A stretch of 64,000 nucleotides of DNA from Candidatus Beckwithbacteria bacterium (GCA_012797845.1 JAAZOH010000016.1:7733-71732); one strand, 5' to 3'. Counted from the stretch's first letter, positions 35,962-60,717 are shown. The notes: generated by a model not told the origin, from the letters alone. A program made the numbers and translations.

Positions 35962-35966
35962 TATTT

Positions 35967-37385: not shown

Positions 37386-37418
37386 TTAATATAACTATCA
37401 TGAGAAAATAGTGAATAT

Positions 37419-41352: not shown

Positions 41353-43254
41353 ATGTCTTTATCTTTCTCAGAAAAAATACTATCTTTATTTTTTTCTATT
41401 ATTGTCGGTATAGGATTATTAGTTTCTGTTGCTCCTGCTATAGCAAGAGCTCAAGAAGGACAAGCTTGTAGTGATACCAGTCCTTGTCCTAGTGGTTATG
41501 AATGTGCTGGAGATAATACTTGCACATATGAAGGTAATCCTTACAAGGATATGTCTCACATGGAACATACTGGAGCTCCTTGTACTCCAAACTCTGACGG
41601 GACAACAGGAACCAGTTGTCCTACTGGATATTACTGTGCATTAGTTGATGGGGAAGGTAAATGTGAAAGTAGTTATTACGCCTCTTATGATCAAGAAACT
41701 GCTGCTTCTTTACAAAATAATGCTGCTTCCCAATGGAACAACTATTGGCTTGATCAGAATAAATTAAGTTATGACACAGAAGCTTTTGGGAGTACAAGCA
41801 TAGGTGATTCCCAATTTGCAAGACGACAATACAGACTAACTATCAATGCAATTACATCAGAAATTGTTGGGCCAGAACCTGAAGTAACATTAGCTTTTGG
41901 TTTACCAGAGGATTCTGGAGCTATTGGAGCTTTTACAAAAGGTGTTACTTTTATGGCTTCTAAACCGCCAGTCAAAACTAGTGCCTATTTAGCTGATCTG
42001 GGCAGACAAATGAATTTAGTCACTCCAGCTTATGCTCAGGGTACTGGTTTTCAGGCTTTAGAACCAGTGTTGGAATTATGGAAGGCTTTTCGTAATATCT
42101 CTTACGTGGGGTTTGTTCTCATATTTGTAGTTATTGGGTTTATGATTATGTTTAGAGCTAAAATTGGTCAACAAGCAGCGCTCACTATTCAACAAGCTCT
42201 ACCCCAAATTGTCATTACCTTGCTTTTAGTTACATTTTCATATGCTATTGCTGCTTTTATGATTGATTTAATTTTCTTTCTGATTTACTTAGCAGTGGGA
42301 GCTTTTGAAGCTTTTGGGATTTTAAATGCACCTAGTTCATCAAACTATGTTAATGTTGTTGAAAATATCTTTTTTGAGAAAAACATTTTGACTATTGCAC
42401 TTCAAGACTTACTATCTTGGGGGACTGATCAAGCTGCAGGAAGTGCCTCATATGCTTTAGGAGACATGATCCAACAAGCTTTTCCAGGTATTATTGGTTC
42501 AGGCCTAGCTTTCATTAGTGCTCCCTTAGGCTATCTTATAATAGCAGTAGCAATTTTAATTGCTGTTTTTAAGCTTTTCTTCCAGTTACTTATGGCCTAC
42601 ATTGGTTTGGTATTTAGTGTTATTTTTGCTCCTATGATCTTACTCTTCAATGCTATTCCTGGTAGTGATAGTTTTGGTAAATGGATTAAAGGTTTGCTAG
42701 CTAATGCTTTAGTTTTCCCAGTTACTGCCGTAATGATTCTGATAGCTGGAGCATTGACTAATAGTCAAAAATTTGGAATTGCTGACGATATTGGCTATCA
42801 ATTTAGTGGTACTACTAAAGTCTTAGGAGTACCTTTTATTAGTGGTGGTTTTGACACTAATGCTATCCAAGCTCTCATTGGTATTGGGGTCTTGATGATG
42901 CTACCTAAAGTAGTTGAGCTAGTCCAAAAATCCCTTGGTGTTGAGGGTGGTTTGGCTGGCATGATGGGTTCTATTGCCGAACCTTTGTCTGGAGGAGCTG
43001 GCCGAGTCTTTGGAACTGCTGGTATGCTAGGTGGAGCTGGGTATCGAGCTGCTACTACTGGCAGCGAAATCGGTAGAGCAGAAGCCATGTATGGACCAAA
43101 TGTTTATGAAAGAGGTTTAAGTAATACACTTAGACATATGCTGGGAATGGGTATGAAAGTTAAACCTGGATTTGTAAATCAACGATGGAATTCGGGAAGT
43201 GGTACTACAGATACCGGAAATGGAACAGGTACGAGAACAGGAACTACTAGTTAA
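41353..43254 (+). CDS. Polytopic membrane protein with Cys-rich N-terminal ectodomain and Gly-rich C-terminus; VirB6/TrbL-like candidate
   Basis: Signal peptide (AIARAQE), ectodomain with ~10 Cys, then 6 or more TM helices (FVLIFVVIGFMIMF, IVITLLLVTFSYAIAAFMIDLIFFLIYLAV, LIIAVAILIAVFKLFFQLLMAYIGLVFSVIFAPMILLF...). Confidence 0.4.
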   Translation: MSLSFSEKILSLFFSIIVGIGLLVSVAPAIARAQEGQACSDTSPCPSGYECAGDNTCTYEGNPYKDMSHMEHTGAPCTPNSDGTTGTSCPTGYYCALVDGEGKCESSYYASYDQETAASLQNNAASQWNNYWLDQNKLSYDTEAFGSTSIGDSQFARRQYRLTINAITSEIVGPEPEVTLAFGLPEDSGAIGAFTKGVTFMASKPPVKTSAYLADLGRQMNLVTPAYAQGTGFQALEPVLELWKAFRNISYVGFVLIFVVIGFMIMFRAKIGQQAALTIQQALPQIVITLLLVTFSYAIAAFMIDLIFFLIYLAVGAFEAFGILNAPSSSNYVNVVENIFFEKNILTIALQDLLSWGTDQAAGSASYALGDMIQQAFPGIIGSGLAFISAPLGYLIIAVAILIAVFKLFFQLLMAYIGLVFSVIFAPMILLFNAIPGSDSFGKWIKGLLANALVFPVTAVMILIAGALTNSQKFGIADDIGYQFSGTTKVLGVPFISGGFDTNAIQALIGIGVLMMLPKVVELVQKSLGVEGGLAGMMGSIAEPLSGGAGRVFGTAGMLGGAGYRAATTGSEIGRAEAMYGPNVYERGLSNTLRHMLGMGMKVKPGFVNQRWNSGSGTTDTGNGTGTRTGTTS

Positions 43255-43320: not shown

Positions 43321-46275
43321 TTATTTATCTGCAGGTTTATTAAGTACTGAAACTTTAAACCATTTACGCAAGAAGTCAATCAGACCAAGTCCCAATTCAA
43401 AATTTCCTTCAAATCTGATATGTCGCAAGTATTTTCCTTCATTCGGCAACATGCCAATATCATTATTGTCCAAGATTTTATCTATCAAAGGTAGGACTCT
43501 TTGTTCAAATTCTTCAGCATTAGCTACCATACCGTCTTTTTCAAAAGCTTTAGCCATGGTCTCAAAATAACGACCACCCACCACCCGAGCCCCGTGATAT
43601 TGCCTACCAGGACAATAGCCTCTGTCTCCATTTTCATCCACATAATTCTTGGGGATATATTTAATCTTCCTAATTGGAGTATTGCTTGGACCAATAATAA
43701 GGTTTCCATCTTTATTGTCATTAACTCTAACTTCTCGATATCCATAACGTTTTTGCAAAACCTCCCACCGTTTTTTAGCAGCTTCAAGCGCCTGCTCTTC
43801 GCTTAAATTAGGGTCTCTTTCTCTATTTATCTCTACAAGTTCTTTAAGAAAATCTTCTTTACTATAATGTTGTTCGACAAAATTCCCACCTTCTCTTTTC
43901 AAATCTGCCACCCAACATTCTGTTCGTATTCCCATCTGGTAGGCTTGAGCAATCATTTCTTCTTGAGCAAATTCTTCCATCCATTTATTGTTTCTAAAAC
44001 CCATTACCCCTTTAGCTTTCAGCTCTCCTGTAGCTTGACTGGTTTTTTTGGCTGCATTTTCAATAACAGCCAGTTTGAGATCTTTCTCACTTTCAATCTT
44101 TCCGGTTAAACCCTCATTATCCATAACTTGGTTATGATAGCCATTAACTACCTCGTATGAATCATTTGCTGCTGCTGTGTAACTAGCATGAGATTCTAGG
44201 ACTTTGTGTTGAAGGGACTCATTCCAGGCTAAAGAATCAAAAAATAGCAGATGTCTTTGCTGCAATTGTTTTATCTGCCTTAAACCTTCAAAGCCTTTGG
44301 TTCTATTGGCATCAAATACTACTGTTTCTTCAATTCGTTGTAACTTGGCAAAAGCTGGGCCAAAGTCAATATGGGCTATAGCGTCTTTTTCATCCTGCGT
44401 CCAGGATTCAAAACCAGCAATTACTTCCTGAAGTGATTTAAAATCTGCACGTTGGACAAAATTGCTTTCATTACCTTTTACTATTACTTTTCCATGCTCA
44501 TCTTTCTTTGTTCTGCGAAGAATTAACCACTTATCTGCTAATTCTTCCCAGTTATCTTCACTAAAATCTAAACTAGTTCCATTTCCTCGCCATTGAGTTG
44601 ATTCACCTTTTACTCCTGATTTGCCATCTTTCCCCATTCCAAAAGCAATCAAACTTTCTATTTCTTCTAAGTGGGGCATAATACCTTGGCGGGTTAATTT
44701 TTGTAGAAGCACTTCTTTTGCACTTGGTTTACCCCGTCTCGCAGCTTCTTTATCAGCTGCCTTATATGCTTCTGTTTCCCAGTTAATATAAGTCATCTCA
44801 GGCAACATCATCGCTCCGGAAGCTCCTTCGCTAGACATTGGTCCCCAACCAATCAATCTTTGCACTCGACGTAGCATCTCTGGCGAATTCTTATAAACCC
44901 GTTCAAATCCCGCTGGAATCACACCTTTTCTAGAAGCTGAATAGGTCTCTCGAGCTCCCATTAAGGGATCGTGTCGATAGTTTTCAAACTGGATATTCCA
45001 TAAATTCCAAGCAGATTCATATACTCCCCAAAGTGCCCCTGTCATTAATCCTCTTAGGTCCTGGCGTTTTTCAGGCGCCAACTCTTTAACTGAAATTCTT
45101 TTACCAAAACCAAAGTCGTACAAATTGGTATCAATGATAACCGCATCCTTAGGTAGACCTTCTCCTTGATCATTTACTAATCGATGTTCAAACAAATCGT
45201 CAAAAATTGCTGCTCTGACTTTATTGTAACCGATATCCTTAGGATGACCATTTTCATCAAGCAGTGAACCTTTCCAATTTTCACCCGGACTTTCAGTCAA
45301 GATCCTATAGGCTGTGTCCGGGTCATCAAGTAAATCTTTATAGTGGTCAATTCTGATAGTGCCTCGATATGTTTGTTCCCGACCATTCCTATCTACAGCT
45401 GTAACCTCTACCTCAGGTGCTATCTCATGCAAACCTTCAAAAAGCTTAATGCCAGGATTACCTAAAATTGAAGACATCGCTTTGATATCTTTTTGGGTCA
45501 TTGCTTGTCCAGCTTTTCGGATAAAATCACCTGCCAACCACATTGAGCCCTGTTCTGAGCTCAGTTGGTTGGAGCTTAGGATCATCTGTAAGGCTTGATG
45601 CTCGATATGAGAACCTGATTTTAAAACTTCCAGATGTAGCAGGGATAAAACTTGCCCAATTCGTTTTTGTTGTTTTGTCGGATCTATAGTTCCATCTGGA
45701 TTCCTAGGATTGGGCAAATAATCACTTAATGCTTTATCAAGTTCATCGTATTTTTCTTGTAGTTCACCTGTGACAGCTTTTAGTTGGTCAAGTCGCATTT
45801 TTTTCCACAAATCAGTCTGAAACCCTCCCATACCATTCTCCCCATTACCTAGTTCAATTAATTTTTGAAGCTGTTCTAAACTTTGCGCTTGTCGCATTTG
45901 CTCTGTTTCTTCTTCGCTAAGATTGATTGTTCCTTCTTCTCGTTCCAACTCTGTAAGTCTTTTTTCAATTGCTCGAATAGCTGGTTTATTTTCTACTCCT
46001 TCTACATTGATTAGTTTTAAATTGAGAGCAACTGCTAATTGAAAAATGATTAAACGACGACGTAATTCTTTTTGTGGAGTGTGTTCTTGAACTAAAAACT
46101 GATAATACATATCAGCTTGCATTTGTTCATCTCTGTTTAAAATAGTATTTTCTTCTTCTTGTTGATTTTGGCGTAGTTCATTTTGGGGATTACGTTCCTG
46201 GTCCTGATCACGACGTGGACGCCGTTCTCGTCTGTTTCTTCTTTGGTTGCGTTCATTTTCTGGATCTGAAGGCAT
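43321..46275 (-). CDS. 984-aa soluble protein of unknown function with an Arg-rich basic N-terminus (RRNRRERRPRRD) and long coiled-coil segments
   Basis: Long uninterrupted ORF; no catalytic motif recognised by eye. Confidence 0.45.
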   Translation of the reverse strand: MPSDPENERNQRRNRRERRPRRDQDQERNPQNELRQNQQEEENTILNRDEQMQADMYYQFLVQEHTPQKELRRRLIIFQLAVALNLKLINVEGVENKPAIRAIEKRLTELEREEGTINLSEEETEQMRQAQSLEQLQKLIELGNGENGMGGFQTDLWKKMRLDQLKAVTGELQEKYDELDKALSDYLPNPRNPDGTIDPTKQQKRIGQVLSLLHLEVLKSGSHIEHQALQMILSSNQLSSEQGSMWLAGDFIRKAGQAMTQKDIKAMSSILGNPGIKLFEGLHEIAPEVEVTAVDRNGREQTYRGTIRIDHYKDLLDDPDTAYRILTESPGENWKGSLLDENGHPKDIGYNKVRAAIFDDLFEHRLVNDQGEGLPKDAVIIDTNLYDFGFGKRISVKELAPEKRQDLRGLMTGALWGVYESAWNLWNIQFENYRHDPLMGARETYSASRKGVIPAGFERVYKNSPEMLRRVQRLIGWGPMSSEGASGAMMLPEMTYINWETEAYKAADKEAARRGKPSAKEVLLQKLTRQGIMPHLEEIESLIAFGMGKDGKSGVKGESTQWRGNGTSLDFSEDNWEELADKWLILRRTKKDEHGKVIVKGNESNFVQRADFKSLQEVIAGFESWTQDEKDAIAHIDFGPAFAKLQRIEETVVFDANRTKGFEGLRQIKQLQQRHLLFFDSLAWNESLQHKVLESHASYTAAANDSYEVVNGYHNQVMDNEGLTGKIESEKDLKLAVIENAAKKTSQATGELKAKGVMGFRNNKWMEEFAQEEMIAQAYQMGIRTECWVADLKREGGNFVEQHYSKEDFLKELVEINRERDPNLSEEQALEAAKKRWEVLQKRYGYREVRVNDNKDGNLIIGPSNTPIRKIKYIPKNYVDENGDRGYCPGRQYHGARVVGGRYFETMAKAFEKDGMVANAEEFEQRVLPLIDKILDNNDIGMLPNEGKYLRHIRFEGNFELGLGLIDFLRKWFKVSVLNKPADK

Positions 46276-47895: not shown

Positions 47896-50800
47896 TTAAC
47901 TTTTTTCATTCTTATAGTCTATTAAATCTCTTTTTAATTTTTCAATGTCTGTAATTTTTACTTCTCTAACTAACATATTATCAGAGTTTCTTCTTTCAAT
48001 AACTGTAAAATTTATTCCTAGAAAATTATTCAATATTCTTTTAACAATTGGAGAGTCGGGTGTATAACCATACACTCCTATAATAGCATTAATATCATCT
48101 TCTAAATGTTCAATACTAAGAGAATCTACATCTTCTGACAAAAGATTTTCAGTAGCTAACCAATTAATATCTCTAATATTATCCCTCGATGCAAAATCAC
48201 TCCATTGATGTACAATGGCAGAATTGCGTCTTCTTCTATCTCGATCTGGATCGGCACCATTATAAGAAGTATAGTAACTCAAACCTCTTCTTGGATTTGT
48301 TATTATCGAAGCTCCTCCAATATATCCTATAGGATAAGTTTTATTTGTGAGTGTTCCATCTGCTTTTTTTCTAGCCTCTTTGATCATATTGCCTAATTCT
48401 ACATCCTGAGCCACATCTGTTTCGGTATTATAACCACCCACAGCAGCATAAATAGAAGATTTTATGGCAAAATTAGCACCAGAAGAACCAACTATTTTTC
48501 TCTGTTTATCATGTCTGGCTACAGCTTCAAGAAATTGATAAAAACGATTAGCAACATGAAAACCGGGGTATTTGATATAAGCTTCTGGATTCCATTCAAT
48601 TTTTCCAAGAGCTCCATCTTGATGTTTTTTAGATGGGTTGTCAAAATTATTAATAATTGAACTAACATAGCTCCTAGAAATAAGTTCTGCATCCGCATCA
48701 TTTGCAACTAATAGGAGATCATTATTTAATGGGTTATCCCGTTTTTGCGAACGTAATAATGCCATGTCTGATACATATTTAGAAATAACCCCCATATTAG
48801 GCCTTTTTTCTGGAAATATTTTCTCGATTACTCTAATTTTTACCTCTGGATGATCTCTTTTGAATCTTTCTACTTCATCCTTAGTTTTGTCTGGAGTAGA
48901 ACTTGACGGTCTATTTAAAAATAATATTATTTCAAAATCATTAGGATTTAATTCATCCCCAGCTAGATCTGTTTGATCTGCATATTGAAGAAGAGTATTA
49001 TATATGTTTTCCCCTTCTTGATGCGAGGCTGCAGCAATACAAATAGCCACTCTACACGAATTACTCATTGGTTCATTTATTGCCGAATCCATATTATTAA
49101 GCTCTTCCAGATAACTTCTTTCTTGTTGTCTAAAATACCATCCTATTTCTTGGTTGGGATTCAGGATAATTTCTGGATTCCTACTTAACCTAGGAGAACG
49201 TCTTGATTTATAAAAATCCTTTCTTTCTTGACTAACTTCATAACCTTGATAATAAATTAACAAGTCTTTTCTCAGCAAATCTTCTAGTGGATATCTCCAT
49301 TCTAATGGTGTCGGGATAAGTGGAGCAGATTCAAAAGGTGGAGTTAGTTCAAATGCAGTTGGCAGTTTGGCTTCCAAATTAAATACTTCTTGAACTGCTG
49401 ATTCACCATGAGGTATCGCAGTCAAAATGGTTTCACCTGGAGTTTCTGCTGTAGTTCTGATAGTTTCCAATCCCTTACCAACTACGGTTGATAAAATTGT
49501 TCTCCTCCCATCAGCTTGACGGTGGGCAATTTCCAAAAAAGCTGCTTCTAAAGAAACTTTATTATCAACTACTTTAATAAGTTGACTTAGATCTGTTCCG
49601 GGAGGAACTATAAGATGGCCATCTGGAGACATTTGAGCTACTATCACTTCTTTGGCTCCTTTAAATGGAGTAAATAAAACTTCAAAATTTTGATAGATTC
49701 GACTCCCATCAGGCTTGGTGATAATATCCCCAGCCAATCGCGCGTATTCTGGATCAATTGAGCTATCCCAATTTAGTCCTCCTTCGGGTACTAAATTAGA
49801 TACCATTTTGGACATATCCACCTCTGCTGAACCATCTTTAAGAGCATGAAAGTAGGTTAAGAGTTCTTTACCATCTGCTCCAACCAATTTTCCTGCTTCG
49901 TTATAGTGCATTGGAGTATTATTGAAATGCCATAATAATTTTTTAGCTTTATCAATAGTTTGTCCAAGTCCTCTAAAATGGTCTAAAACTGGAGCATCTT
50001 TACTTACAATCTGACCTGATCCCGGAGTTTGATCCAAGTGAGTAGTAAAATCAACTCGATCTAATACCTGATGGGCTTGTCCAAGATCAATACCTGGATT
50101 ATCTTTTGGCAAAAAAGTAAGGGATCCATCACCAGCAATAGTCCCATGAAGAGAAATCCGTGGACCGTGCCAAGCTGTTCCTGGTTGAATAATAACATCA
50201 TGACCATTAACGGTCATAGTTAGCCCTGCTTTCATTCCTTCTGCTGAACCAAAAGTTTTAGTACCTCCAGCTGTAACTACTTCTTTGACTTTTTCTAAAA
50301 GCGATGGAGTATTTACAGTAGTTTTTTCAATCACTCCTACTCCAAAACCACGATTTTTCAAAATATCATGAAGAGAAGAAAGCTTTGATTGATCTCCAGT
50401 AAACTGCAGGGATTCACCTGTTAGTTTACTTACGCCAATATTATCACCACTGTAGGCATCGGCTACAAAAACCTGCTGCCCATGGTTGAGATCAAGATTG
50501 AGCCGTAAACCTTCATGTTCAAAAACCGTAGACTGACCCTGAGCCGCAGCTTCCCGAACTTGTTCTTGAAGTGAATGAGAGACTGTTTCAGTTTTACCCC
50601 AACTACCAATAATATCTTTGACGGAGACCGGTAAATTTTCTGGATTACCGGAAATGATCAGCTTGCCATTTGGTTGTGAAAATATTTTTGGTAAACCAGT
50701 CAAAGGTTGATTGGTAGTAGTATCAACTAAAGTGAGTGAGTGATCAGGGTTTATCAGTGCTTTGACATGTTCACCAAAGTTCATTTCTCCACCACTACCA

Positions 50801-53253
50801 CTTTGTTGATATAACTCAGCTAAACTAGCAATATTAGGTCCTTGGGGCCGATCACCAATATGTAACCAGCTTTCTACTGCCGTTTGACCTGTTCCACCAA
50901 GATGAATACCAGCACTATCCAAACCTCTAGCAGCTAAAGCAATTCCCTCCTGAGAGAGAATACCACCAACTAAAGCTGTAGCTCCTCCAAATGCTCCAGC
51001 TTTAACCGCTTGCCCAAGTCGATAGCTATTGAAAGCTTTATCTTTTTCTTCCTTAGTTTCTGAATATCTTTGCATCAGTTCTTGTTCTGCTATATCCAGC
51101 TCTCTAGTAATTTGAGCTGTAGCTTCAGCTCTTTTTTGTTCAAGAGTTTTATTGGGATCGATATCTTGAGCTATACGCGCTTCAATCAATTGTTGTTTAG
51201 CTTCAACTACCACTTTAACCAGTTCAAGTCGCTGTGAAGCTGTTGAGTAGCGACCAACTTCTGGAGTATTAGTATCAAAAGAAATTAAATCAGTTTTAGT
51301 TTCAATGCCAAAGTTGATCCTGGCATTAATTTCAGCAGCTTTTTTAAGCAGAGCCTCTCGATGTTCTTGCTCACTTAAATCTTGACTAATTAAAGCATCC
51401 ATTTGACCTAATAAGCCTTTAGCAGTAACCCGAACCTTATCCTCATCAAGCATATTACTAAATTCATTAAGCCTATCTCTTCGAGGAGTAGGTGTGTCTC
51501 CAGGGTAAAATCCAGCTGCGCTTTCTAGTTCTTGCATTTCTCTGTCGTTTTTAAGATCGGTCCAACGCCGTAATCCAGCAAACACTGCTCCAGTTGTAGC
51601 TCCTATAGCCAGTCCAATTCCAGGTACTTTAGCTGCCAAACCTGAAGCGCTACTACCTGCTCTTAATACTGAACGCACCCCACCACTAGCTAATCCTGAT
51701 ATAACTCCAATTGCTAAAGGATTAGCTAGCCAACCTCTAAATTTACCTGACTTAGTCCAATTCATGTAGCGTTCAATTTTACTAAAGTCAGCATCAGTAC
51801 TTGTTGCCATAAAAGCTCGACCAAATTGAATAGTCAACATATCATCAAGTCGACCTAAAACATCATGACCAGCTTCTTGCCATCCCTTGACTTCCTCAGC
51901 TATGTCTTTAATATTGGCCGCTATAAAATCAGAGTTTTTAACATAATCAGGAATATCATCTATAGCTTTAATACTTTCAACTAGTTCTTCAACTTTTTGA
52001 TCAAGTTCTTCAGGTCTAATGTTTCCTTGAGCATATTCAGAAATCAAGCCTTGTATACCTTGTTGGACTTCATTACTTAGATTAACTTCTGCCGTTTCTC
52101 CAGAAAAAGTTTTTACCTCATCTCTTCCTATCATCCCAAATCGTTCTAATGTAGACCGAGACTGAGTTTCAGCCAACCTTTTACCTTGATTAATTTCTCT
52201 AGCTGCCCCAGTCACATCATCAAGTTCTAAAAATTGATGGCCAGCTGTAATTTGAGCTGCCATTAATTCTTGAGTTTTTTTAGTTACAAAATAACGCTCA
52301 AATAATTTGAATCTGATATTGGGTATTGATTTAAGAGCAGCTAAAGGCATTTCATACCACTTTTTAGCTCTTTCGCCCCGCATTTTGTTATGTGTCCAGC
52401 GTAGCGCTGCTTCATAAGCTTGGCGTTTAGCATCATGACTGGTATCAACCAGAGACACTACTAATTTTTCCGGAGGAACAACTGGTTCAGTTACTGTTGG
52501 TGGAACTGGAATGGTTACGGCAGCAGAATCATCTTCATCTCCATTTTCTTCTGGTTCATCTGAATCTCTGCTCGACTCAGGTGGCTCTACAACAATGGGA
52601 GATTCTGGATCTGGGTTATCAGATCTAACTGGTCTTGGTTCAGTTGGAGGATACACCATCCAACGGGAAAGTAAAATTTTATGAGCTTCTATTTTACTTG
52701 GACCAGTAAAATTACCATCTAAACCTCTTTCTACTACTCCCATAGGATCATTAAGTTCCTCCATTTCTTCCAGTTCTTTGACTGCCCGTGCTTCAATTAA
52801 GCTATGTTGCCATGCTTCAGGTAAACTTCCATAACTTTTAAGTTGTTTTTTACCACCACTTGTTAAAGTTCGATAAATCGTATGTAGCCATTCCAATCTT
52901 TCTGGGTTTGGAGTTGCTTTTATCGACTCTCTTTGAATTTCGTTTAAAGTAGTTAATAAAATTTGAGTAACTTGAATTCCTTCGTTATATCGCTTTTTTC
53001 TACCATCATTAGTTTGAACTTCAATCCGCACACCACTAGTTCTTCTTTGTTTAAGCTGCTCACCTCTTTTTTTATTCAATGCTATTTCATATTTAACTTC
53101 ACTAGTCTGTTCACTTGTTGGTAGCTCTTCCAATAATTGTCTACCTTTCTCCAACGCCCAAAAGACTTCTTCTCTTGTAGGCTGATACTCTTGATTACTT
53201 TCAACAGCTCGATTGATTTCAGCATGCTGGTTAGGAGATAAGATTTCAACCAT
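47896..53253 (-). CDS. Giant (1785 aa) multidomain protein with Gly/Ala-rich hydrophobic segments, long coiled coils, and a C-terminal GT-A fold glycosyltransferase-like domain with DxD motif
   Basis: The C-terminal 390 aa read CRVAICIAAASHQEGENIYNTLLQYADQ...FEIILFLNRP ... LLLVANDADAELI ... AAVGGYNTETDVAQDVELG. This is the GT-A/GT2 pattern (Rossmann beta1, DxD, second acidic motif). Mid-protein segments GVISGLASGGVRSVLRAGSSASGLAAKVPGIGLAIGATTGAVFAGL and AGAFGGATALVGGILSQEGIALAARGL are glycine-zipper-like. Confidence 0.6.
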   Translation of the reverse strand: MVEILSPNQHAEINRAVESNQEYQPTREEVFWALEKGRQLLEELPTSEQTSEVKYEIALNKKRGEQLKQRRTSGVRIEVQTNDGRKKRYNEGIQVTQILLTTLNEIQRESIKATPNPERLEWLHTIYRTLTSGGKKQLKSYGSLPEAWQHSLIEARAVKELEEMEELNDPMGVVERGLDGNFTGPSKIEAHKILLSRWMVYPPTEPRPVRSDNPDPESPIVVEPPESSRDSDEPEENGDEDDSAAVTIPVPPTVTEPVVPPEKLVVSLVDTSHDAKRQAYEAALRWTHNKMRGERAKKWYEMPLAALKSIPNIRFKLFERYFVTKKTQELMAAQITAGHQFLELDDVTGAAREINQGKRLAETQSRSTLERFGMIGRDEVKTFSGETAEVNLSNEVQQGIQGLISEYAQGNIRPEELDQKVEELVESIKAIDDIPDYVKNSDFIAANIKDIAEEVKGWQEAGHDVLGRLDDMLTIQFGRAFMATSTDADFSKIERYMNWTKSGKFRGWLANPLAIGVISGLASGGVRSVLRAGSSASGLAAKVPGIGLAIGATTGAVFAGLRRWTDLKNDREMQELESAAGFYPGDTPTPRRDRLNEFSNMLDEDKVRVTAKGLLGQMDALISQDLSEQEHREALLKKAAEINARINFGIETKTDLISFDTNTPEVGRYSTASQRLELVKVVVEAKQQLIEARIAQDIDPNKTLEQKRAEATAQITRELDIAEQELMQRYSETKEEKDKAFNSYRLGQAVKAGAFGGATALVGGILSQEGIALAARGLDSAGIHLGGTGQTAVESWLHIGDRPQGPNIASLAELYQQSGSGGEMNFGEHVKALINPDHSLTLVDTTTNQPLTGLPKIFSQPNGKLIISGNPENLPVSVKDIIGSWGKTETVSHSLQEQVREAAAQGQSTVFEHEGLRLNLDLNHGQQVFVADAYSGDNIGVSKLTGESLQFTGDQSKLSSLHDILKNRGFGVGVIEKTTVNTPSLLEKVKEVVTAGGTKTFGSAEGMKAGLTMTVNGHDVIIQPGTAWHGPRISLHGTIAGDGSLTFLPKDNPGIDLGQAHQVLDRVDFTTHLDQTPGSGQIVSKDAPVLDHFRGLGQTIDKAKKLLWHFNNTPMHYNEAGKLVGADGKELLTYFHALKDGSAEVDMSKMVSNLVPEGGLNWDSSIDPEYARLAGDIITKPDGSRIYQNFEVLFTPFKGAKEVIVAQMSPDGHLIVPPGTDLSQLIKVVDNKVSLEAAFLEIAHRQADGRRTILSTVVGKGLETIRTTAETPGETILTAIPHGESAVQEVFNLEAKLPTAFELTPPFESAPLIPTPLEWRYPLEDLLRKDLLIYYQGYEVSQERKDFYKSRRSPRLSRNPEIILNPNQEIGWYFRQQERSYLEELNNMDSAINEPMSNSCRVAICIAAASHQEGENIYNTLLQYADQTDLAGDELNPNDFEIILFLNRPSSSTPDKTKDEVERFKRDHPEVKIRVIEKIFPEKRPNMGVISKYVSDMALLRSQKRDNPLNNDLLLVANDADAELISRSYVSSIINNFDNPSKKHQDGALGKIEWNPEAYIKYPGFHVANRFYQFLEAVARHDKQRKIVGSSGANFAIKSSIYAAVGGYNTETDVAQDVELGNMIKEARKKADGTLTNKTYPIGYIGGASIITNPRRGLSYYTSYNGADPDRDRRRRNSAIVHQWSDFASRDNIRDINWLATENLLSEDVDSLSIEHLEDDINAIIGVYGYTPDSPIVKRILNNFLGINFTVIERRNSDNMLVREVKITDIEKLKRDLIDYKNEKS
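47899..49065 (-). other. GT-A (DxD) glycosyltransferase-like domain at the C-terminus of the 1785-aa protein
   Basis: Motifs listed above; coordinates approximate (last ~388 codons). Confidence 0.45.
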
Positions 53254-53256: not shown

Positions 53257-53667
53257 TTAGTTTGCTGAAGAATTTTGTGACATAGACTGAGGCTCAGATT
53301 TTGTTTCTTGGATATCACTTAAAAAGAAATTGCGAAAATCCATAAAACTCTGGGCAAATACCTCTTTAGCATTGGGGATTTTTTCAGTGATAAACTGTTC
53401 CATTTCCTGTTTACCTTTACCGGATTGAACTAGTTCAATAAATTGATCAACTTGCTCTGGCTGCATGTTTTCGATAGCATCAGCTATGATTTTTTTCTCA
53501 AGTCTGGCATATAAATCTCCAATCATGGCAGCTTTAAGATCATCAGTCAAAACCATACCCGCATCCTCGAGTAATTGATTAAGAAAAGCCTCAATATCTG
53601 ATGGGATTTGTTCTACAGGTGAACTAGCTTGGGTATGACTAGTATTTTGATCGTTAGTATCATTCAT
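53257..53667 (-). CDS. Small acidic protein (136 aa) immediately upstream of and translationally adjacent to the 1785-aa gene; chaperone/adaptor candidate
   Basis: A 3-nt gap to the giant gene and acidic composition. Function is inferred only from size, charge and position. Confidence 0.4.
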   Translation of the reverse strand: MNDTNDQNTSHTQASSPVEQIPSDIEAFLNQLLEDAGMVLTDDLKAAMIGDLYARLEKKIIADAIENMQPEQVDQFIELVQSGKGKQEMEQFITEKIPNAKEVFAQSFMDFRNFFLSDIQETKSEPQSMSQNSSAN

Positions 53668-53715: not shown

Positions 53716-54459
53716 ATGACTTCTGTTATCAAAATTATTTCCAGTATATTGCAAAACATTGGTTTGATATCAATGTATTGGTTAGTGTTTTTATGTCTTA
53801 TACAACTATTACTTTTATATCTACTCACAAGATATTATTTAGGAAGTTTATACCGATTTTTTTTATTAATTACTAAGTCATCGAATTGGGCTATGAGGTT
53901 TTCAGCTGTTTTTTTATTACCAGGTACTGTTATCCACGAACTATCTCACTATTTAGTAGCAGAAATTCTTCAAGTTCGTACAGGAAACATTAATTTATAT
54001 CCTGCTAAAAATGAGGAGGGTAAATTACGCCTTGGCAGTGTAGCTATTGCTCAAACCGATCCATTTCGGAAAATTTTAATTGGTACTGCGCCATTATGGA
54101 CAGGCTTGGGTATAATAGCTGCTCTAATATATATCATTGTAGATAAAATACCGCCACTTTTTTTCTTGATTCTGATTTTCACTGCTATTTTTTTAATTGC
54201 TAGTACTATGTTCTCTTCCAAAAAAGATCTGACCGATATGTTTGTCCCTACTTTTTTACTTTTTATTATTTGGCTGTTTTTATACCTGACTAAAACTGCT
54301 TTACCTGAAGCAGTTATCACTTTTTTTTCTCATATACTCATTAGCCTCAACTTAGGCTTATTGGTTACGCTTGCCATTTATCTTATATTTTTATGTTTGC
54401 TTTATATGGCAACTCGTTTATTCAGTCTGATTTTAAAAAGAAAAATTATTACCAAATAA
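53716..54459 (+). CDS. Polytopic membrane protein with HExxH zinc-binding motif (HELSHYLVAE); putative membrane metallopeptidase (DUF3267-like)
   Basis: HExxH embedded after the second TM helix; 5-6 TM helices. Confidence 0.45.
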   Translation: MTSVIKIISSILQNIGLISMYWLVFLCLIQLLLLYLLTRYYLGSLYRFFLLITKSSNWAMRFSAVFLLPGTVIHELSHYLVAEILQVRTGNINLYPAKNEEGKLRLGSVAIAQTDPFRKILIGTAPLWTGLGIIAALIYIIVDKIPPLFFLILIFTAIFLIASTMFSSKKDLTDMFVPTFLLFIIWLFLYLTKTALPEAVITFFSHILISLNLGLLVTLAIYLIFLCLLYMATRLFSLILKRKIITK

Positions 54460-54505: not shown

Positions 54506-57241
54506 ATGGTAGACTCTTCTCCACAATTGCAATTACGTGATCAGGCTCAAGCTCGAGCTTTAATTACCCTACTACTCTCTGATCAGAAAGAACCTTTTAC
54601 TATCAATACTCAGCCGTATTCTAGACAGCAATGCTTAGAGGCTTTGCAGGCATATTTAACATCAACCTTAGAAAGACAATGGACTATAGATCAACTTGAT
54701 AATGCCACTGAACTTTCAAAGATTGAAGCCGAATTAGAGGCTTCTTATGAAGAAGAAATTGAAGCTCCAAGTCTGCCTCAAAATTTACAAGAATTGATTC
54801 ATTTTCAAAAAGAAGCAGCTGAACGCAGACAAACTTTGGCAGCCCATAAAGATCTTGACTTAGCTCACATCTCAGTTAAACAAAATGTGGCTTTAGCTCA
54901 AAAATATCGAGAACTACTCGAAAAAGCTAAAGCTTTTAGTCAGGATTCCAGTAATTTAAAAACTGAGGTTGAAACACAAACGATTCAAGAGCGATTGGGC
55001 CGTCAATCAGAAATTGGTAAAGAACTACAAGACAGTTCACTTGCCTATGGTACGCAAATTGCCTTAGAAGAAATCGGTGAACAACTAGTTCGATCAACTG
55101 ATCCAAAGCAAGCCACCATAAATGATCAAGCTGTAAGTTCCAAAATAGCCCTAGATCCTAGAATGGGAACACAAGCAACTAATCCGGTTTTGTATCAAGA
55201 AATACGCAAAACTATTAATCGGCTCAATGAAAACCCTCAACAAAAAAAGCAATTTAGAGATGCCTATATACTTCATAAAGCGGCTCTAGCTGCTACCACC
55301 CCAACCTATACTCAGCTTATCGATGTGTTTGAAGGCGAGGGCCATATGTCAAGAGCTCAAGCTCGACATGCTATGAGTTATTTTACGACTCTAATTGAAA
55401 GTGGTGTGGTCTATAATCAAGCTTTTTTTGAAGCCGGTGAGAGAGCCAGTTCTGGTTTTCAAAGACTAGTTTCGCAAAAATATTACCGTAACCCTAGTTT
55501 ATACAGCCATCTCTTTAGAGGTTTAGAGCAATATCAGCAATACCGCCCAGGCGTACGTAACAATCAAGGTATTATCAATTCTCAAACTGAGCTAACTAGT
55601 CAAGTTGGCAAAGGTGAAAGTACTATCACTTTAGATCAGCTCACAGAAATGATTAATAGGGGATTAGCTCCAGGAGAAGAAGTTTCTCCCACCCAAGTTT
55701 TAGTCCATTTTATGGGTGGCCAAGATGTATTTTATGCAAGTAGTCAAACATTGATTGACAGCCTAGATTCTAATGAAGAACAAAAGAAGCTTCGTTCTTT
55801 CTTATTAGATCAGCAAACTGACTTTACCAATAGTTCTCATAGAATTAGCCAATCAATTACTCATCAAGGTGGTTTTATATCTCAATTTTCTTCCAGTTTC
55901 AAACCGGTCGAACGCCATCAATTTTCGGCTTTTTCACTACTCACTGTTACTGCTTCCAGTATGGCTACAACTGGTTTTGCTTTTGCTACCCACACTGATA
56001 CCAGCAGTTTTAATCTTTTTAGAAATACTAATAATTTTTTAAACAACTCTTTATCTGGTAGATTAGTCAACTATGGCATGGGTAAGGTAGGTGAATGGGC
56101 TCTTGGAGCCGCAGCTTCCACTGGTCTTAAAAAAACTTTTGGTAAGTTAGCAGTTGGTGGCTTAACTAAATTGGCAGGAGCTTTGGGAGTTAATATCATA
56201 CCAGTTGTTGGTCAAGCTGTGTCCGCAGTCATGCTAGCCAAACAAATAGTCGACATTGCCGAACAGCTTCCGGTTGTAGGAAAGGCAGTAGGTTTCGGAA
56301 AGAGATTTTGGTGGGTCTTACCTGCAACTTTACTAGCTGGATTAATTGCTCTTATTGCTAAATTACTCAACTTAATTCTTTCTATTGCTGGGACTGTTGG
56401 ACCTCCAATGCTTATTTTAGGATTAGCAACTGCTAATCCTCTTTTAATAATTCCTGGTCTTGCTTTGACTGTGATTGGTCACTGGCCTACTATTAGTAAG
56501 TTTTTTAGTAATCTTTTTCAGGGTGCTAATAATCTTGGTACTAAGGTTTTAAATCTCTTTGGGGCAGGGGCTTCTGAAGCTGCTAGTGGCGGCATGTTCC
56601 CTGCTTTTGTTCATGCCCCGCTTATAGCTGTGGGGGCAGTTGGTATAACCACAACTTTTTTGTATATCAACCTTATTTCAGCATTTCGATTACCTCCATT
56701 TGATACATTACAAGATGTCTATAATAAAATTGATAATTTAACCCAGTTTGAGCCAGGTATGCCTGAATGTTGGCCAGTTAGCGGGTATGTCACCCAAGGT
56801 ATGAATACTGGAGATAGCCATACTGGAGTGGTGCTTAATTCTATCGATATTGGCGGTAACGATGGAGCAGATGTTCACGCAACTCACAATGGAGTAGTAG
56901 TAGAAGCCGGATGGAATAGTACTGGCTATGGAAAACTGGTTCGGATTGAGGGTACAACTGGAGGACTTCCTTTTACAACCTATTATGCTCATCTTGAAAC
57001 TATCACTGTAAACGAAGGAGCTACAGTTAAAAAAGGCCAAGTTATCGGCACAGTTGATAGTACCGGTAATTCTGAAGGCCCACATTTACATTATGAATTG
57101 CGAGGTTTGGGTTCAATAGCGGATACTATTTTACTGTCCGGATGCATCGATGAAGCAAGTGCTGATAGAATTGAAAACGGAAAGTGTATTGGCCAAGCAA
57201 GCTGTAATTTTACTATTAGTCAAATTGTCCAACCAGAATGA
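54506..57241 (+). CDS. 911-aa protein: N-terminal coiled-coil region, central hydrophobic segments, C-terminal M23 (LytM/lysostaphin-type) peptidase domain
   Basis: M23 signature HTGVVLNSIDIGG (HxxxD) ... YYAHLE ... GPHLHYELR (HxH) in the last ~160 aa. Confidence 0.7.
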   Translation: MVDSSPQLQLRDQAQARALITLLLSDQKEPFTINTQPYSRQQCLEALQAYLTSTLERQWTIDQLDNATELSKIEAELEASYEEEIEAPSLPQNLQELIHFQKEAAERRQTLAAHKDLDLAHISVKQNVALAQKYRELLEKAKAFSQDSSNLKTEVETQTIQERLGRQSEIGKELQDSSLAYGTQIALEEIGEQLVRSTDPKQATINDQAVSSKIALDPRMGTQATNPVLYQEIRKTINRLNENPQQKKQFRDAYILHKAALAATTPTYTQLIDVFEGEGHMSRAQARHAMSYFTTLIESGVVYNQAFFEAGERASSGFQRLVSQKYYRNPSLYSHLFRGLEQYQQYRPGVRNNQGIINSQTELTSQVGKGESTITLDQLTEMINRGLAPGEEVSPTQVLVHFMGGQDVFYASSQTLIDSLDSNEEQKKLRSFLLDQQTDFTNSSHRISQSITHQGGFISQFSSSFKPVERHQFSAFSLLTVTASSMATTGFAFATHTDTSSFNLFRNTNNFLNNSLSGRLVNYGMGKVGEWALGAAASTGLKKTFGKLAVGGLTKLAGALGVNIIPVVGQAVSAVMLAKQIVDIAEQLPVVGKAVGFGKRFWWVLPATLLAGLIALIAKLLNLILSIAGTVGPPMLILGLATANPLLIIPGLALTVIGHWPTISKFFSNLFQGANNLGTKVLNLFGAGASEAASGGMFPAFVHAPLIAVGAVGITTTFLYINLISAFRLPPFDTLQDVYNKIDNLTQFEPGMPECWPVSGYVTQGMNTGDSHTGVVLNSIDIGGNDGADVHATHNGVVVEAGWNSTGYGKLVRIEGTTGGLPFTTYYAHLETITVNEGATVKKGQVIGTVDSTGNSEGPHLHYELRGLGSIADTILLSGCIDEASADRIENGKCIGQASCNFTISQIVQPE
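56758..57238 (+). other. M23 peptidase domain
   Basis: HxxxD and HxH zinc-ligand motifs with the conserved spacing. Confidence 0.65.
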
Positions 57242-58248
57242 AAAAAAAATATATCTTTATACTTATAATAGCTCTTGTAATTATAGTTATTGTTGGGATT
57301 ATATTAGCTTGGCAAAAACAAACTAATCAAATTGCAGTTAATACCCTTCCTAAACCTTCAGTTAAACCTACTACCACTCAACTTAATCTTACATATCAAT
57401 ATGTAGGTGAACTGCCAACATTTAACAAGCAAATTACAATTTACAGTACTGGGAAAGACGAAGCATTTTCATCACAGGAAATTCAGGAATATGGTCAAAA
57501 ATTTGGTTTTACCAACAGTTCAAAGCAGTTACAAGATATTTCTGGTATTGTGTATTCTTTCAAACAAAATGATTTGTCATTGAGCATATTTTCAAACCCA
57601 CCTTCATTATCATACCGTAATTTTACTTCTCCAGGTTCAAACAAGCTTAGTCAAAAAGATTTGGTTGCTAAAGCCCAGGAGTTCTTGGATACCGCTCAAA
57701 TAATAGGTAAACAGGTTATGTTAAGCACTCCCTATTTACAACCAATTGCTGGTAGTCAAACTGGAGAAGGTCTTTTAAAAACAACGATGGATCAAGCTAG
57801 TTATGTAGAAATAAACTATAATTTAGTTCTTGATAAGCTGCCAATTATCCCTAAAGACCGTCAAAGTTATCCAATTACATTGCTACTCAATTTGGATGGA
57901 AGTATTCGCAAGGCTAGTCTAACAATTTTTACTAAAGAACTTTCTTCTCTTGGTAAAGTCACACCTGCAGAACCAGCAGCTGCCCTTCAGGCTATTAATG
58001 CTGGTGGTGGTTTACTAAGTAAATTTAGCAACCCCAACCAAGCTTATACTGAAATTGATAGCAATATGATTTCTACAGCTACTCTTAGGTCGTTGGAATT
58101 GGTTTATTTGTATGATTATGATACAAATACTCTCCAACCCTACTATCGTTTTTCCGGAACTGCAAATACCACAAGTGCTGAATTGATTGAAATTGAAGTG
58201 TTAATTACTGCCTTACCACAGGAGGTCTTTCAACAAGAAAACAATTAG
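57238..58248 (+). CDS. Bitopic membrane protein (336 aa), unknown function; start overlaps upstream stop (ATGA)
   Basis: N-terminal TM (IFILIIALVIIVIVGIILAW) followed by a Ser/Thr/Asn-rich extracytoplasmic domain. Confidence 0.45.
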   Translation: MKKKYIFILIIALVIIVIVGIILAWQKQTNQIAVNTLPKPSVKPTTTQLNLTYQYVGELPTFNKQITIYSTGKDEAFSSQEIQEYGQKFGFTNSSKQLQDISGIVYSFKQNDLSLSIFSNPPSLSYRNFTSPGSNKLSQKDLVAKAQEFLDTAQIIGKQVMLSTPYLQPIAGSQTGEGLLKTTMDQASYVEINYNLVLDKLPIIPKDRQSYPITLLLNLDGSIRKASLTIFTKELSSLGKVTPAEPAAALQAINAGGGLLSKFSNPNQAYTEIDSNMISTATLRSLELVYLYDYDTNTLQPYYRFSGTANTTSAELIEIEVLITALPQEVFQQENN

Positions 58249-58386: not shown

Positions 58387-60717
58387 TTATAATCTGGCCC
58401 GCTGGGCAATTTCTGCTCCTACTAAATCCGCATCTTTACCATATTTAAGTCGGGATAACTGAGTAATCATTTCAGCTAGTTGTTTGTTGCGCATTTTATT
58501 GTAGACCTCCATATTTTTAGTTAGATCTAGAGTAAACGGAGGAACAGGCTCATTATTAACAATAGTTTTAATAATTAAATTGTATCGTTCAATATTGATA
58601 AGATCTGTTTCGGTAAAGGTAGGCTGAAATTCATGCTGGAGATAATTGGCATCAGTTACCCCAACTCGGAAAGAAGCAATCGTACCCACATTACCAAAAA
58701 TAGCATTTTTTACCTCATCTTCTATTTGACCAATAAATTGATTAGCTACTACTAGGTTCAGATGGTATTTCCGAGCTTCAGATAAGATCTGGGCAAAGTC
58801 GGGGGTAGCAAAATTTTGAAACTCATCAACATAGAGATAAAAATCTGGCCGTTGTTCTTCAGGTACATCTTGCCTGCTCATCGCTGCGATCAGAATTTTT
58901 GGCACCAAAACCAAGCCTAAAAAATTAGAATTTTCTTCGCCGATCCGGCCTTTAGCTAAGTTGATAAGAAGGATTTTACGCTCATCCATGACCTTGCGAA
59001 AATCAAAAGCTGAATGGCTTTGGCCAATAATATTTCGCATCATTTTATCCGTCACGAAGCGGCCGAATTTAGAGGCAATGTAGTCTAAAACTTCAGATTT
59101 ATGAAAGTCAGAGGTTTGGGCAATCTGGTCAGTCCAGTATCGCCTGACCATTGGATCTTTGACTTTGGGCAGCAGTTCTTGGACATATTTTGGATCGGTT
59201 AAAATACGCACTACTTCTACAAAAGAAGCTCCATCTTCTACCATGACAGTCAACATAGCATTACGGATAGCATGTTCAAATCGAGGCCCAATAATACCTG
59301 TTTTATGCGGGTCATAGAGTTTATACATTAGACCAATAATAGCTGAAGCAATAAAGTGTTGTTGTTGCTCAGTTTTAGCTTCCATAATGTTCATACCCAA
59401 AGGCCGATCTAAATCTGCAGGATTAAAGTAAATCACGTCTTCTGCTCGCTCCGGGGGAATCATTTCCAATAGCTTTTCAACTGTATCATGAGGGTCAATA
59501 AAACAAACTCCACGACCAGCTCTAATATCTTGCAAAATAAGATCAGTCAACATTTCTGATTTCCCAGTCCCAGTTTTTCCAATGATGTACATATGACGTT
59601 GTCTATCTATATCTTGAATATAGACTGGTCTTGAGCTACCCCGAGCTATATTTTTCCCAAGATAAGTGCCTGAACTAGCAATTCCGGCTGGAGCTGGCAT
59701 CCGCTTAGCTGAAAGCCAATAGATGTGTGGAGTTTCTACGCTTTTGTTTGGTAAGTGGAAAAGGGTAGCTAATTCTTCTGAAGATAAAACTGATTTACCA
59801 TCAAAAAGTGGCTGGTAGCGGTAAATAAAATCAATCATAAAAAAGTATTTAAATAAGTGCCATTTGGGAGTTCTTAAAGTATTTAAATCAGAAGCAAACT
59901 GTTTGAATGTCCCTACAATATTTTTTAAATGCATTTTAGCCCTAGGCATATCTGGAGCTGAAACCACAACTCTAATAGTGGTTTCAAAGCCAGGTTTAGA
60001 ACACTTATTTTCAATAGCATCATAAGTCTTTGGATCAATATTGTACTTAGCTTTTTCTGGATCAGATTCATTCTTTTTGGTTCGCGATATATAACCTTTA
60101 CCCATATGACTCCATTTCGGTCCAGTAGGTGCAATAATAATTTGTACAACTGCTCCTTCATCATCTCCCATCTTAGCCAACGCTGAAGTGATAGAAGACA
60201 ATGGGTCTGTTGGTAAGTCTTTATAAACTTTAAGGGGATTGTAATTGCTTGATTTGAGATAAAGATTATCAAAAGCCACTTTACCTTTTTCTGTAAAAAT
60301 ATTATATTCATCTATTTCACGAATATCGGCTCCGGGATATGCTCCATAAAGCTGTTTTTCCACCAAGTCTTGCAAATGACTAGGCACGGCTACATAAAAT
60401 TTAATCTCTTCTTTTTTGGCTACAATTTCAAAAGACAAATGGTCTTGGGCAGACAACCAGGCTTTAAAACCAATTTTAAAAATTGAATGCAATGAAGCAA
60501 ACATTTGTTCAGCTGCGTCAATTTTGGTTTCATTTTCCCGAGGTACACGTATCTGTAATAAAACCATGTCCAATGATACTTCTTCTCTTTTTCTGAATTT
60601 TAAAAGTAGAATCAGCACATACCCTACTCCAGCTATGCCTCCAATTGCTAGTAAACCAATAATAAGTACTACTGCAAAATACTGAATTTGAGATAAGAAA
60701 GTTGCAAGATCTGCCAT
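58387..60717 (-). CDS. Membrane-anchored VirB4/TraC-like (FtsK/HerA-superfamily) secretion ATPase
   Basis: N-terminal TM hairpin (FAVVLIIGLLAIGGIAGVGYVLILLL), Walker A YIIGKTGTGKSE near residue ~385, Walker B LYVDEFQNFAT. Size (776 aa) and motif placement are VirB4-like. Confidence 0.55.
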   Translation of the reverse strand: MADLATFLSQIQYFAVVLIIGLLAIGGIAGVGYVLILLLKFRKREEVSLDMVLLQIRVPRENETKIDAAEQMFASLHSIFKIGFKAWLSAQDHLSFEIVAKKEEIKFYVAVPSHLQDLVEKQLYGAYPGADIREIDEYNIFTEKGKVAFDNLYLKSSNYNPLKVYKDLPTDPLSSITSALAKMGDDEGAVVQIIIAPTGPKWSHMGKGYISRTKKNESDPEKAKYNIDPKTYDAIENKCSKPGFETTIRVVVSAPDMPRAKMHLKNIVGTFKQFASDLNTLRTPKWHLFKYFFMIDFIYRYQPLFDGKSVLSSEELATLFHLPNKSVETPHIYWLSAKRMPAPAGIASSGTYLGKNIARGSSRPVYIQDIDRQRHMYIIGKTGTGKSEMLTDLILQDIRAGRGVCFIDPHDTVEKLLEMIPPERAEDVIYFNPADLDRPLGMNIMEAKTEQQQHFIASAIIGLMYKLYDPHKTGIIGPRFEHAIRNAMLTVMVEDGASFVEVVRILTDPKYVQELLPKVKDPMVRRYWTDQIAQTSDFHKSEVLDYIASKFGRFVTDKMMRNIIGQSHSAFDFRKVMDERKILLINLAKGRIGEENSNFLGLVLVPKILIAAMSRQDVPEEQRPDFYLYVDEFQNFATPDFAQILSEARKYHLNLVVANQFIGQIEDEVKNAIFGNVGTIASFRVGVTDANYLQHEFQPTFTETDLINIERYNLIIKTIVNNEPVPPFTLDLTKNMEVYNKMRNKQLAEMITQLSRLKYGKDADLVGAEIAQRARL

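Follow-up and report, generated by a model that had tools for sequence, protein, structure and literature searches.

Why does a Candidatus Beckwithbacteria bacterium encode a peptidoglycan endopeptidase domain at the end of a protein with several hydrophobic segments, and whose cell wall would such a protein open? The gene in question occupies positions 54506 to 57241 (plus strand) of a stretch of 64,000 nucleotides (GCA_012797845.1, JAAZOH010000016.1:7733-71732; G+C content, ~38%), which was analyzed over its full length and is referred to here as the window. Beckwithbacteria are placed in the class Microgenomatia of the Patescibacteria (PMC12102498 supplement). We favor, with middling confidence, the reading that the product is a membrane-anchored M23 endopeptidase serving as a wall-remodeling part of the lineage's monoderm-type type IV secretion system (T4SS) or pilus machinery, and thus a functional analogue of the PrgK-class hydrolases. 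The sequence data do not separate the cutting of the producer's own wall from that of a host's wall.

The full-length gene and its M23 domain

Where an earlier note on this DNA had placed an M23 protein, an open reading frame (ORF) of 911 amino acids (aa) plus stop runs uninterrupted from its ATG over the whole of positions 54506 to 57241. The preceding gene ends 46 nt upstream of the start codon, and the stop codon shares ATGA (57238 to 57241) with the start codon of the following gene. An exact copy of the 911-aa sequence is present in a public protein collection. The corresponding NCBI entry NMC35881.1 ([quoted passage not shown]) has 426 aa, is identical to aa 486 to 911 and starts at Met486. 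This gene call omits a conserved N-terminal stretch of 485 residues (window positions 54506 to 55960), to which relatives align at the protein level: P0005 to aa 1 to 159 (BLASTP, E=2e-6), P0009 to aa 10 to 134, and P0003 to aa 231 to 760 (HMMER, E=2.5e-21). As the N-terminal part is conserved in full-length relatives, we judge the 911-aa ORF to be the real gene and the 426-aa version to be a truncation, so that the long ORF corrects a database annotation. A scan for operon signals found promoter-like sites at chance level and eight terminator-like sites, against 3.1 (standard deviation, 1.8) in shuffled sequences, with none at an operon boundary.

The C terminus is a genuine M23/LytM domain (aa 756 to 870; 56771 to 57115, plus strand), as the earlier note had stated. 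The Pfam model Peptidase_M23 (PF01551) matched aa 778 to 869 with 91.7 bits against a cutoff of 28.7 (E=3.4e-26), and a sequence search of the PDB returned 38 M23 chains at E<=1e-3, headed by Helicobacter Csd1 (E=4.5e-16). An AlphaFold2 (AF2) model of aa 724 to 911, built from 34 sequences, had a mean predicted local distance difference test (pLDDT) score of 85.6, with the core above 90. Foldseek matched this model at a probability of 1.00 to Csd1/Csd2, StM23, LytM, lysostaphin, DipM and EnvC in the PDB. NCBIfam gave sub-threshold matches only, to many M23 and LytM families, and a word-index protein search with the C-terminal part recovered only generic M23 proteins. No SLT, CHAP or NlpC/P60 domain was matched by Pfam in the query. 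Tape-measure and tail families of the PHROG collection matched the C-terminal part alone, the best stretches starting at aa 696 at the earliest and mostly at aa 735 to 793. The candidate identity of a phage tape-measure or tail protein was rejected, since the non-M23 part lacks phage homology and the flanks are syntenic chromosomal housekeeping genes.

The family to which the protein belongs is extremely rare. An exhaustive HMMER search with aa 1 to 760 against 1.84 billion representative proteins (E<=1e-3) returned 11 matches, several of them full length (896 to 1052 aa). One of these, P0004, was discarded as a spurious match, in 12 stretches, to a 2693-aa repeat protein of vWA-like type, leaving about 10 relatives. 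Between loci, the M23 proteins are 30 to 42% identical in their C-terminal half. Word-index searches with the full protein and with the membrane-region alignment recovered nothing but a fragment of the query itself or a single unrelated M23 protein, low-complexity words having crowded the candidates. Likewise, a scan of genome contigs with the query protein found one unrelated Clostridia M23 locus only, and an alignment-based scan of metagenome contigs found nothing. In metagenome contigs, 120 loci fitted a degenerate DNA pattern that stands for M-x-A-F-x-L-P-P-[FY]-[DE], but according to tblastn none of them encodes a relative.

An unusual first histidine

The active site departs from the canonical M23 pattern at one position. 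The earlier note had described an unambiguous HxxxD...HxH signature, and its second half is indeed present as H860-L-H862. The first half is not: HxxxD is absent, and L777 occupies the canonical histidine position in alignments with PDB 9gy1 and with generic M23 proteins. The loss of zinc ligands on alignment, which the same note had named as a result that would speak against its assignment, is found for this canonical histidine, while D781 and H862 are kept and H772 offers an alternative. The first motif reads S-H772-T-G-V-V-L-N-S-I-D781, that is, H(x)nD with n=8. On the basis of the alignments, the candidate zinc-binding and catalytic residues are H772 (56819 to 56821), D781 (56846 to 56848), H829 (56990 to 56992), H860 (57083 to 57085) and H862 (57089 to 57091), all on the plus strand; H829, the additional catalytic histidine, lies in the sequence YYAHL, at the expected distance of about 30 residues ahead of HxH.

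The four residues at canonical positions (D781, H829, H860 and H862) vary little or not at all among family members. The first histidine occurs at one of two mutually exclusive positions, with no family sequence having both or neither. It stands nine residues before the aspartate in four members including the query (SH[TR]G or NHTG) and five residues before it in five others (H-x-N-[AS]-[IV]-D). In a MAFFT alignment, H772 falls on His188 of phage phi29 gp13, the query reading QGMNTGDSHTG...ID against QGENGSFSHKG..ID195 in gp13. We take His188 and Asp195 to be the gp13 zinc ligands, which fits the residue numbering counted here. A review of M23 enzymes gives the family motif as H(x)nD with variable n and cites LasA (n=12) and phi29 gp13, the latter as an active M23B enzyme with a long motif of this kind (PMC9662197). 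The two proteins share the noncanonical His-Asp spacing and the QGxNxxxSHxG lead-in, and gp13 (PDB 3CSQ) ranked 50th among the Foldseek matches. They differ in that gp13 is only 25% identical overall, has a spacing of 6 residues rather than 8, and belongs to the virion as a soluble protein that carries a lysozyme domain at its N terminus and lacks a membrane region.

Taken together, these alignments make it probable, in our view, that the zinc site is intact and uses a gp13-type first histidine. A second candidate for the missing ligand was the nearly invariant histidine of ATH794xG. It was rejected because the generic M23 protein P0058 carries the same motif alongside a canonical H-x-G-V-D.

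A leucine at the canonical histidine position could also mean that the domain has no enzymatic activity and instead binds peptidoglycan or a partner protein, with a regulatory or scaffolding role like that of EnvC, NlpD, DipM, SpoIIQ or the LytM domain of PrgK. The SpoIIQ protein of Bacillus subtilis lacks exactly this histidine; it is a membrane-anchored LytM-fold protein in a secretion-like apparatus between two cells. The NCBIfam SpoIIQ model matched the query with E=1.9e-7 and 31 bits, against a cutoff of 250. Activators (ActS, NlpD, DipM and EnvC) are among the better NCBIfam matches, all of them far below their cutoffs. SpoIIQ is anchored by one N-terminal segment and lacks a long cytoplasmic region, and the query differs from it further in retaining a histidine at an alternative position. 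In PrgK, the LytM domain is degenerate and metal-free and has neither HxxxD nor HxH (PMC11323569), while in the present family the other four catalytic or ligand residues are kept throughout and every member has a relocated histidine, aligning with that of gp13. Furthermore, active enzymes with differing H(x)nD spacings have been described (PMC9662197), and one relative ends in a CHAP-like domain with its Cys and His in place. As the catalytic residues are conserved, we consider a noncatalytic role very doubtful.

Membrane region and predicted topology

The N-terminal region (aa 1 to 513; 54506 to 56044, plus strand) is hydrophilic and rich in Q, L, S and E, with one cysteine and no signal peptide. 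It is modeled by AF2 as helical throughout at low confidence (mean pLDDT, 47.5), its model has no PDB match by Foldseek at E<=0.001, and it is 15 to 20% identical among relatives. The coiled coils that had been proposed for this part of the protein were not borne out: in a crude heptad-register test the region scored 0.45, below the shuffled median maximum of 0.525. These roughly 510 residues are probably cytoplasmic.

The proposed cluster of hydrophobic helices, in contrast, was confirmed. The quoted stretches are present, and the Gly/Ala-rich membrane region (aa 514 to 727; 56045 to 56686, plus strand) contains hydrophobic segments at about aa 559 to 577, 601 to 627, 631 to 659 and 698 to 727, with Kyte-Doolittle peaks at 559 to 577, 609 to 627, 636 to 654 and 706 to 724. 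The first segment carries a conserved N-x-I-P-x-x-G-Q and is possibly re-entrant. In seven full-length family members, clusters of K and R precede the first and second segments, and a long, weakly basic loop separates the third and fourth. Six of the seven (the query, P0010, P0011, P0009, P0006 and P0005) have a net acidic stretch behind the last helix; in P0003 this stretch is neutral.

Directly after the last hydrophobic helix lies A726-F-R-L-P-P731 (56681 to 56698, plus strand). The motif A-F-x-L-P-P is invariant in all 10 family sequences, the CHAP variant included, and we know of no sorting or cleavage signal that it matches. Four cysteines follow the last helix, compared with the one in the N-terminal 513 residues: C755 and, in the C-terminal tail (aa 871 to 911; 57116 to 57238, plus strand), C880, C894 and C900. 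All four are invariant in the query and three close relatives (alignment A4), which suggests disulfides and an extracytoplasmic location. Hydropathy, the distribution of K and R and the cysteine pattern together favor a position of the M23 domain outside the cell.

A relative with a CHAP-like end next to virB3 and virB4

The most direct connection to a T4SS comes from the 917-aa relative P0005. This protein shares with the query the N terminus (E=2e-6) and the membrane region including A-F-x-L-P-P (E=2e-13), and it ends in a CHAP-like domain (QCVGF...GHLGI) in place of M23. The Pfam CHAP match is weak (E=0.0074), with the Cys and His in place. The hydrolase end has thus been exchanged within the family. 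The P0005 gene stands directly upstream of genes for a Big_5 protein, a PrgI/VirB3-like protein, a 361-aa protein and VirB4 (P-loop_TraG, 6.1e-33), in a locus that adjoins dnaN, dnaA and rnpA. An arrangement of this kind has been reported as typical for the T4SS of Patescibacteria (PMC12102498).

These systems are related to the monoderm MPF-FATA class (Quinonero-Coronel et al., PMC12102498). VirB6 homologues are scarce in Microgenomatia, and parts of the VirB1 and VirB6 types are hard to find there (PMC12102498). The T4SS cluster of Southlakia is essential to its growth as an epibiont (PMC10633639); essentiality has likewise been reported for the peptidase and lysozyme homologues encoded beside virB4 in Ca. 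Southlakia epibionticum (PMC12102498).

Type IV secretion-like genes in the window

The earlier note had connected the M23 protein to a type IV system. That link is plausible, given seven pilin genes and a coupling protein-like ATPase in the window in addition to the position of P0005, but it lacks a VirB4 in the window. The pilin genes form a tandem array of divergent VirB2-like genes (34804 to 37844, plus strand; PF18895, each with E 1e-8 to 5e-7). The array matches those reported as especially common in Microgenomatia and Saccharimonadia (Quinonero-Coronel et al., PMC12102498). A polytopic membrane protein of 633 aa (41353 to 43254, plus strand) is rich in Cys in its N-terminal part, has many membrane helices and ends in a Gly/Thr-rich tail. 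It is 46% (L001) and 44% (L006) identical to proteins encoded near the M23 genes of two other loci, and one homologue matches TrbL/VirB6 (PF04610) weakly (E=0.004), which makes the 633-aa protein a weak candidate for a divergent VirB6. Between the pilin array and this gene, positions 37903 to 41292 (plus strand) encode a Cys-rich protein of 1129 aa that has a hydrophobic N-terminal segment and matched no family; a 95-aa stretch of it is 51% identical to the start of L006. A lysozyme- or SLT-like end on this protein (ALWIEESGG) was considered and dropped, as PDB sequences, Pfam and NCBIfam gave no support.

A conserved three-gene unit and its neighbors

The M23 gene stands between two partner genes on the same strand. 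The upstream partner, p247 (53716 to 54459, plus strand), encodes a polytopic membrane protein of 247 aa. Its H74-E-x-S-H78, E83 and D115 are invariant in four homologues, each encoded immediately upstream of an M23 gene, and p247 may be an uncharacterized membrane zinc metalloprotease. Its candidacy as an M50-type protease was dropped, with nonsignificant matches to Pfam M50/M50B (E 0.4 to 0.8) and no match in the PDB. The downstream partner, p336 (336 aa; 57238 to 58248, plus strand), has an N-terminal anchor and an outer domain of ~310 aa, and its start overlaps the M23 stop. Counterparts of ~338 aa are syntenic in five other loci at 27 to 39% identity. No signal was obtained for p336 as a VirB8/PrgL analogue, and it has no similarity to PrgL.

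Five other loci of the M23 type were compared (L001, L002, L004, L006 and L007), in all of which the M23 gene is followed by the gene for the ~338-aa anchored protein. The order p247-M23-p336 is kept in L001, L006 and L007, with an upstream protein of ~230 aa. The contig of L004 includes only part of the p247 homologue, at its end, and that of L002 stops just short of the M23 gene on its upstream side. Convergent to the M23 pair, all five loci have genes for a ~777-aa ATPase, a ~197-aa protein and CobA. Maf is next in the conserved order, with a match to only its first ~50 residues in L001. A DUF5663 protein of 136 aa (53257 to 53667, minus strand; E=8.9e-7) is encoded divergently just upstream of the p247-M23-p336 unit.

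In the window, the convergent gene encodes a T4CP (type IV coupling protein)-like P-loop ATPase of 776 aa (58387 to 60717, minus strand), whose homologues carry DUF8128. It matches TrwB_AAD_bind (E=9.6e-8), the SXT protein TraD (E=1.7e-11) and phrog_5156 (E=3.4e-93). The ATPase is 72 to 80% identical across loci, CobA 46 to 61% and Maf 41 to 45% over its length. The 776-aa ATPase is in this respect unusually conserved for its neighborhood.

The constant gene order raises the possibility that the protein is a housekeeping endopeptidase of growth or division and that its T4SS-like neighbors are an accident of conserved synteny. The flanks include CobA and Maf and, in relatives, ribonucleotide reductase, and their order is the same in all five M23 loci. 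Coupling-protein homologues of Patescibacteria mostly lie far from virB4 and may be exapted (PMC12102498), and nearly 70% of the M23 sequences in databases carry the annotation of a single-domain protein whose N-terminal sequence is long (PMC9662197). On the other side, P0005 is encoded immediately before virB3/virB4, the sequences diverge rapidly, and a core division factor would not be expected in a family with 11 matches among 1.84 billion representatives. As the family is so rare and P0005 is so placed, we regard a purely housekeeping role as quite unlikely.

The divergence of the unit bears on which wall is cut. The M23 protein, p247 and p336 are 27 to 44% identical across loci, against 72 to 80% for the neighboring ATPase, a pattern expected of proteins that face a partner organism. 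The M23 domain could accordingly act on the peptidoglycan of a host or prey cell at the contact site, tethered or released. Release might occur by a cut at A-F-x-L-P-P, perhaps by p247 with its HExxH motif, and the coupled p336 could be a partner or protector. The invariant junction motif, the conserved HExxH membrane protein encoded immediately upstream, the exchangeability of the hydrolase domain (M23 or CHAP) and the essential role of the Southlakia T4SS in epibiotic growth all fit this reading. So does the likeness of the first-ligand motif to that of gp13, a phage tail enzyme that pierces the wall of another cell. However, the several strongly hydrophobic helices argue for insertion in the producer's own membrane, and the phage tape-measure families match nothing but the M23 part. 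Cleavage and release of the M23 domain are assumptions, as are the host and lifestyle of the Beckwithbacteria lineage, and the M50/M50B matches of p247 are nonsignificant. We therefore rate a host-directed breach as credible but unlikely. A more elaborate version, in which p247-M23-p336 would form a processing-and-delivery module, strikes us as highly improbable: the M23 protein would be inserted beside the pilus or T4SS, p247 would cut at A-F-x-L-P-P, and the gp13-like M23 domain would breach the host wall in the manner of a phage tail, with the Gly-zipper-rich membrane region perhaps helping to form a conduit. If true, it would represent a wall-penetration device of Patescibacteria without described equivalent.

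Comparison with known T4SS hydrolases

The earlier note had treated M23 as an unusual replacement for the CHAP or SLT domains of such systems. This assumption does not hold, as M23/LytM domains are known from PrgK, from the plasmids pHT77 and pVAPA and from VirB1 homologues of Patescibacteria. PrgK was the sole prototype tested among the hydrolases of monoderm T4SS (PrgK/TraG-pIP501/TrsG/CD419/CwlT). Encoded on pCF10 of Enterococcus faecalis and assigned to the 'DELTA' class of T4SS peptidoglycan hydrolases, it consists of an intracellular N-terminal domain, one transmembrane helix and outer LytM, MUR and CHAP domains (PMC11323569). Its likeness to the query lies in the size (871 against 911 aa), in the order of intracellular N-terminal domain, anchor and outer hydrolase part including an M23/LytM fold, in the setting of a monoderm-type T4SS and in the small anchored protein encoded next (PrgL, compare p336). 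The two differ in that PrgK has one transmembrane helix, a lysine-rich N-terminal domain and three outer domains, whereas the query has three to four hydrophobic segments, a Q/E/L-rich N-terminal region of twice the length, and a single M23 domain with the full catalytic set. The query may work like the PrgK-class hydrolases yet is not a sequence member of that family.

Other M23 proteins linked to conjugation resemble the query in the placement of their genes. Plasmid records matching aa 724 to 911 at E<=1e-8 numbered 394, and 118 of these were typed as conjugative. On pHT77 of Bacillus thuringiensis, a 305-aa M23 gene lies in the transfer region downstream of a gene for an ATPase of the type II secretion/type IV pilus/T4SS family. 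On pVAPA of Prescottella equi, a 546-aa M23 gene lies between genes for an SCO6880-family protein and, one gene further on, a coupling protein with a TraM recognition domain. In both cases the M23 domain is encoded among or beside conjugation genes. Unlike the query, both proteins are far shorter and stand outside the 11-match family, and the M23 part alone aligns, at 35 to 38% identity. The VirB1-type proteins of Patescibacteria are from the same phylum and the same kind of system, and some bear added Peptidase_M23 or LysM domains (PMC12102498). They differ in having been found through TrsG, CD419 or VirB1 profiles (SLT, NlpC/P60, CHAP), with M23 as an extra, whereas the query has no such domain. 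Homologues of this type in Microgenomatia are rarely encoded beside virB4, and the query's window has no virB4.

The wall-remodeling reading and its significance

Several results weigh against assigning the M23 protein to a T4SS as an active outer hydrolase. No VirB4, VirB3 or VirB8 was recognizable in the 64-kb window, and the pilin array lies 17 kb from the M23 gene, with unannotatable genes in between. The ATPase gene, convergent to the M23 gene, is codirectional with those for CobA and Maf, which may reflect inherited gene order rather than function. A comparison of the family alignment with PrgK by hhalign gave no sign of homology (probability, 0.18) beyond a nonsignificant alignment of the LytM part. 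A plain count of the hydrophobic segments, which by crude hydropathy number four in most members, would with the N terminus inside put the M23 domain inside the cell. Finally, H772 lies on the loop that the domain model predicts with the lowest confidence (block pLDDT, 67).

With these reservations, a wall-remodeling T4SS hydrolase could operate as follows. The helical N-terminal region of ~510 aa would be kept in the cytoplasm. After a re-entrant or interfacial segment, three spans would run outward (~601 to 627), inward (631 to 659) and outward (698 to 727), leaving the C terminus outside, with A-F-x-L-P-P forming the junction at the outer face of the membrane. Two disulfides would hold the M23 domain in shape. 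Zinc would be bound by H772, D781 and H862, with H829 and H860 acting in catalysis, and the enzyme would sever the peptide cross-links of the peptidoglycan beside the apparatus, letting the channel or pilus pass.

Many of the bacteria that have not been cultivated belong to the Patescibacteria. The one member open to genetics cannot grow on its host without the T4SS, which poses the question of how the apparatus crosses the wall of either cell. The M23 family described here is a concrete candidate for the missing wall-remodeling part in Microgenomatia. It offers testable features in its gp13-type zinc motif, invariant junction motif, exchangeable hydrolase end and two conserved partner genes. 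As monoderm T4SS were known before to include M23/LytM domains and the function given here is a proposal, the findings should be of use mainly to those working on the envelopes of Patescibacteria, and their general interest is modest.

Other genes in the window

Ordinary chromosomal genes elsewhere in the window include those for FtsK, RNase J, PNPase, IF-2, NusA, CobA and Maf and a block of mevalonate-pathway genes. Two large proteins encoded between the 633-aa protein and the DUF5663 protein, of 984 aa (43321 to 46275, minus strand) and 1785 aa (47896 to 53253, minus strand), have no Pfam, NCBIfam or PHROG match; the end of the latter appears glycosyltransferase-like by eye. Their genes are without counterpart in L001 and L006, which carry other genes at this place, so that a variable island interrupts the conserved cluster. 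The mevalonate-pathway block (27018 to 34740, minus strand) comprises genes for a GHMP kinase, a thiolase, an HMG-CoA synthase-like protein and HMG-CoA reductase, together with an extracytoplasmic function (ECF)-type sigma factor and a polyprenyl synthetase. At 14424 to 15362 (minus strand), a member of the streptomycin adenylyltransferase family (PF04439, E=3.2e-65) is encoded, an aminoglycoside nucleotidyltransferase-like protein in an uncultivated ultra-small bacterium.

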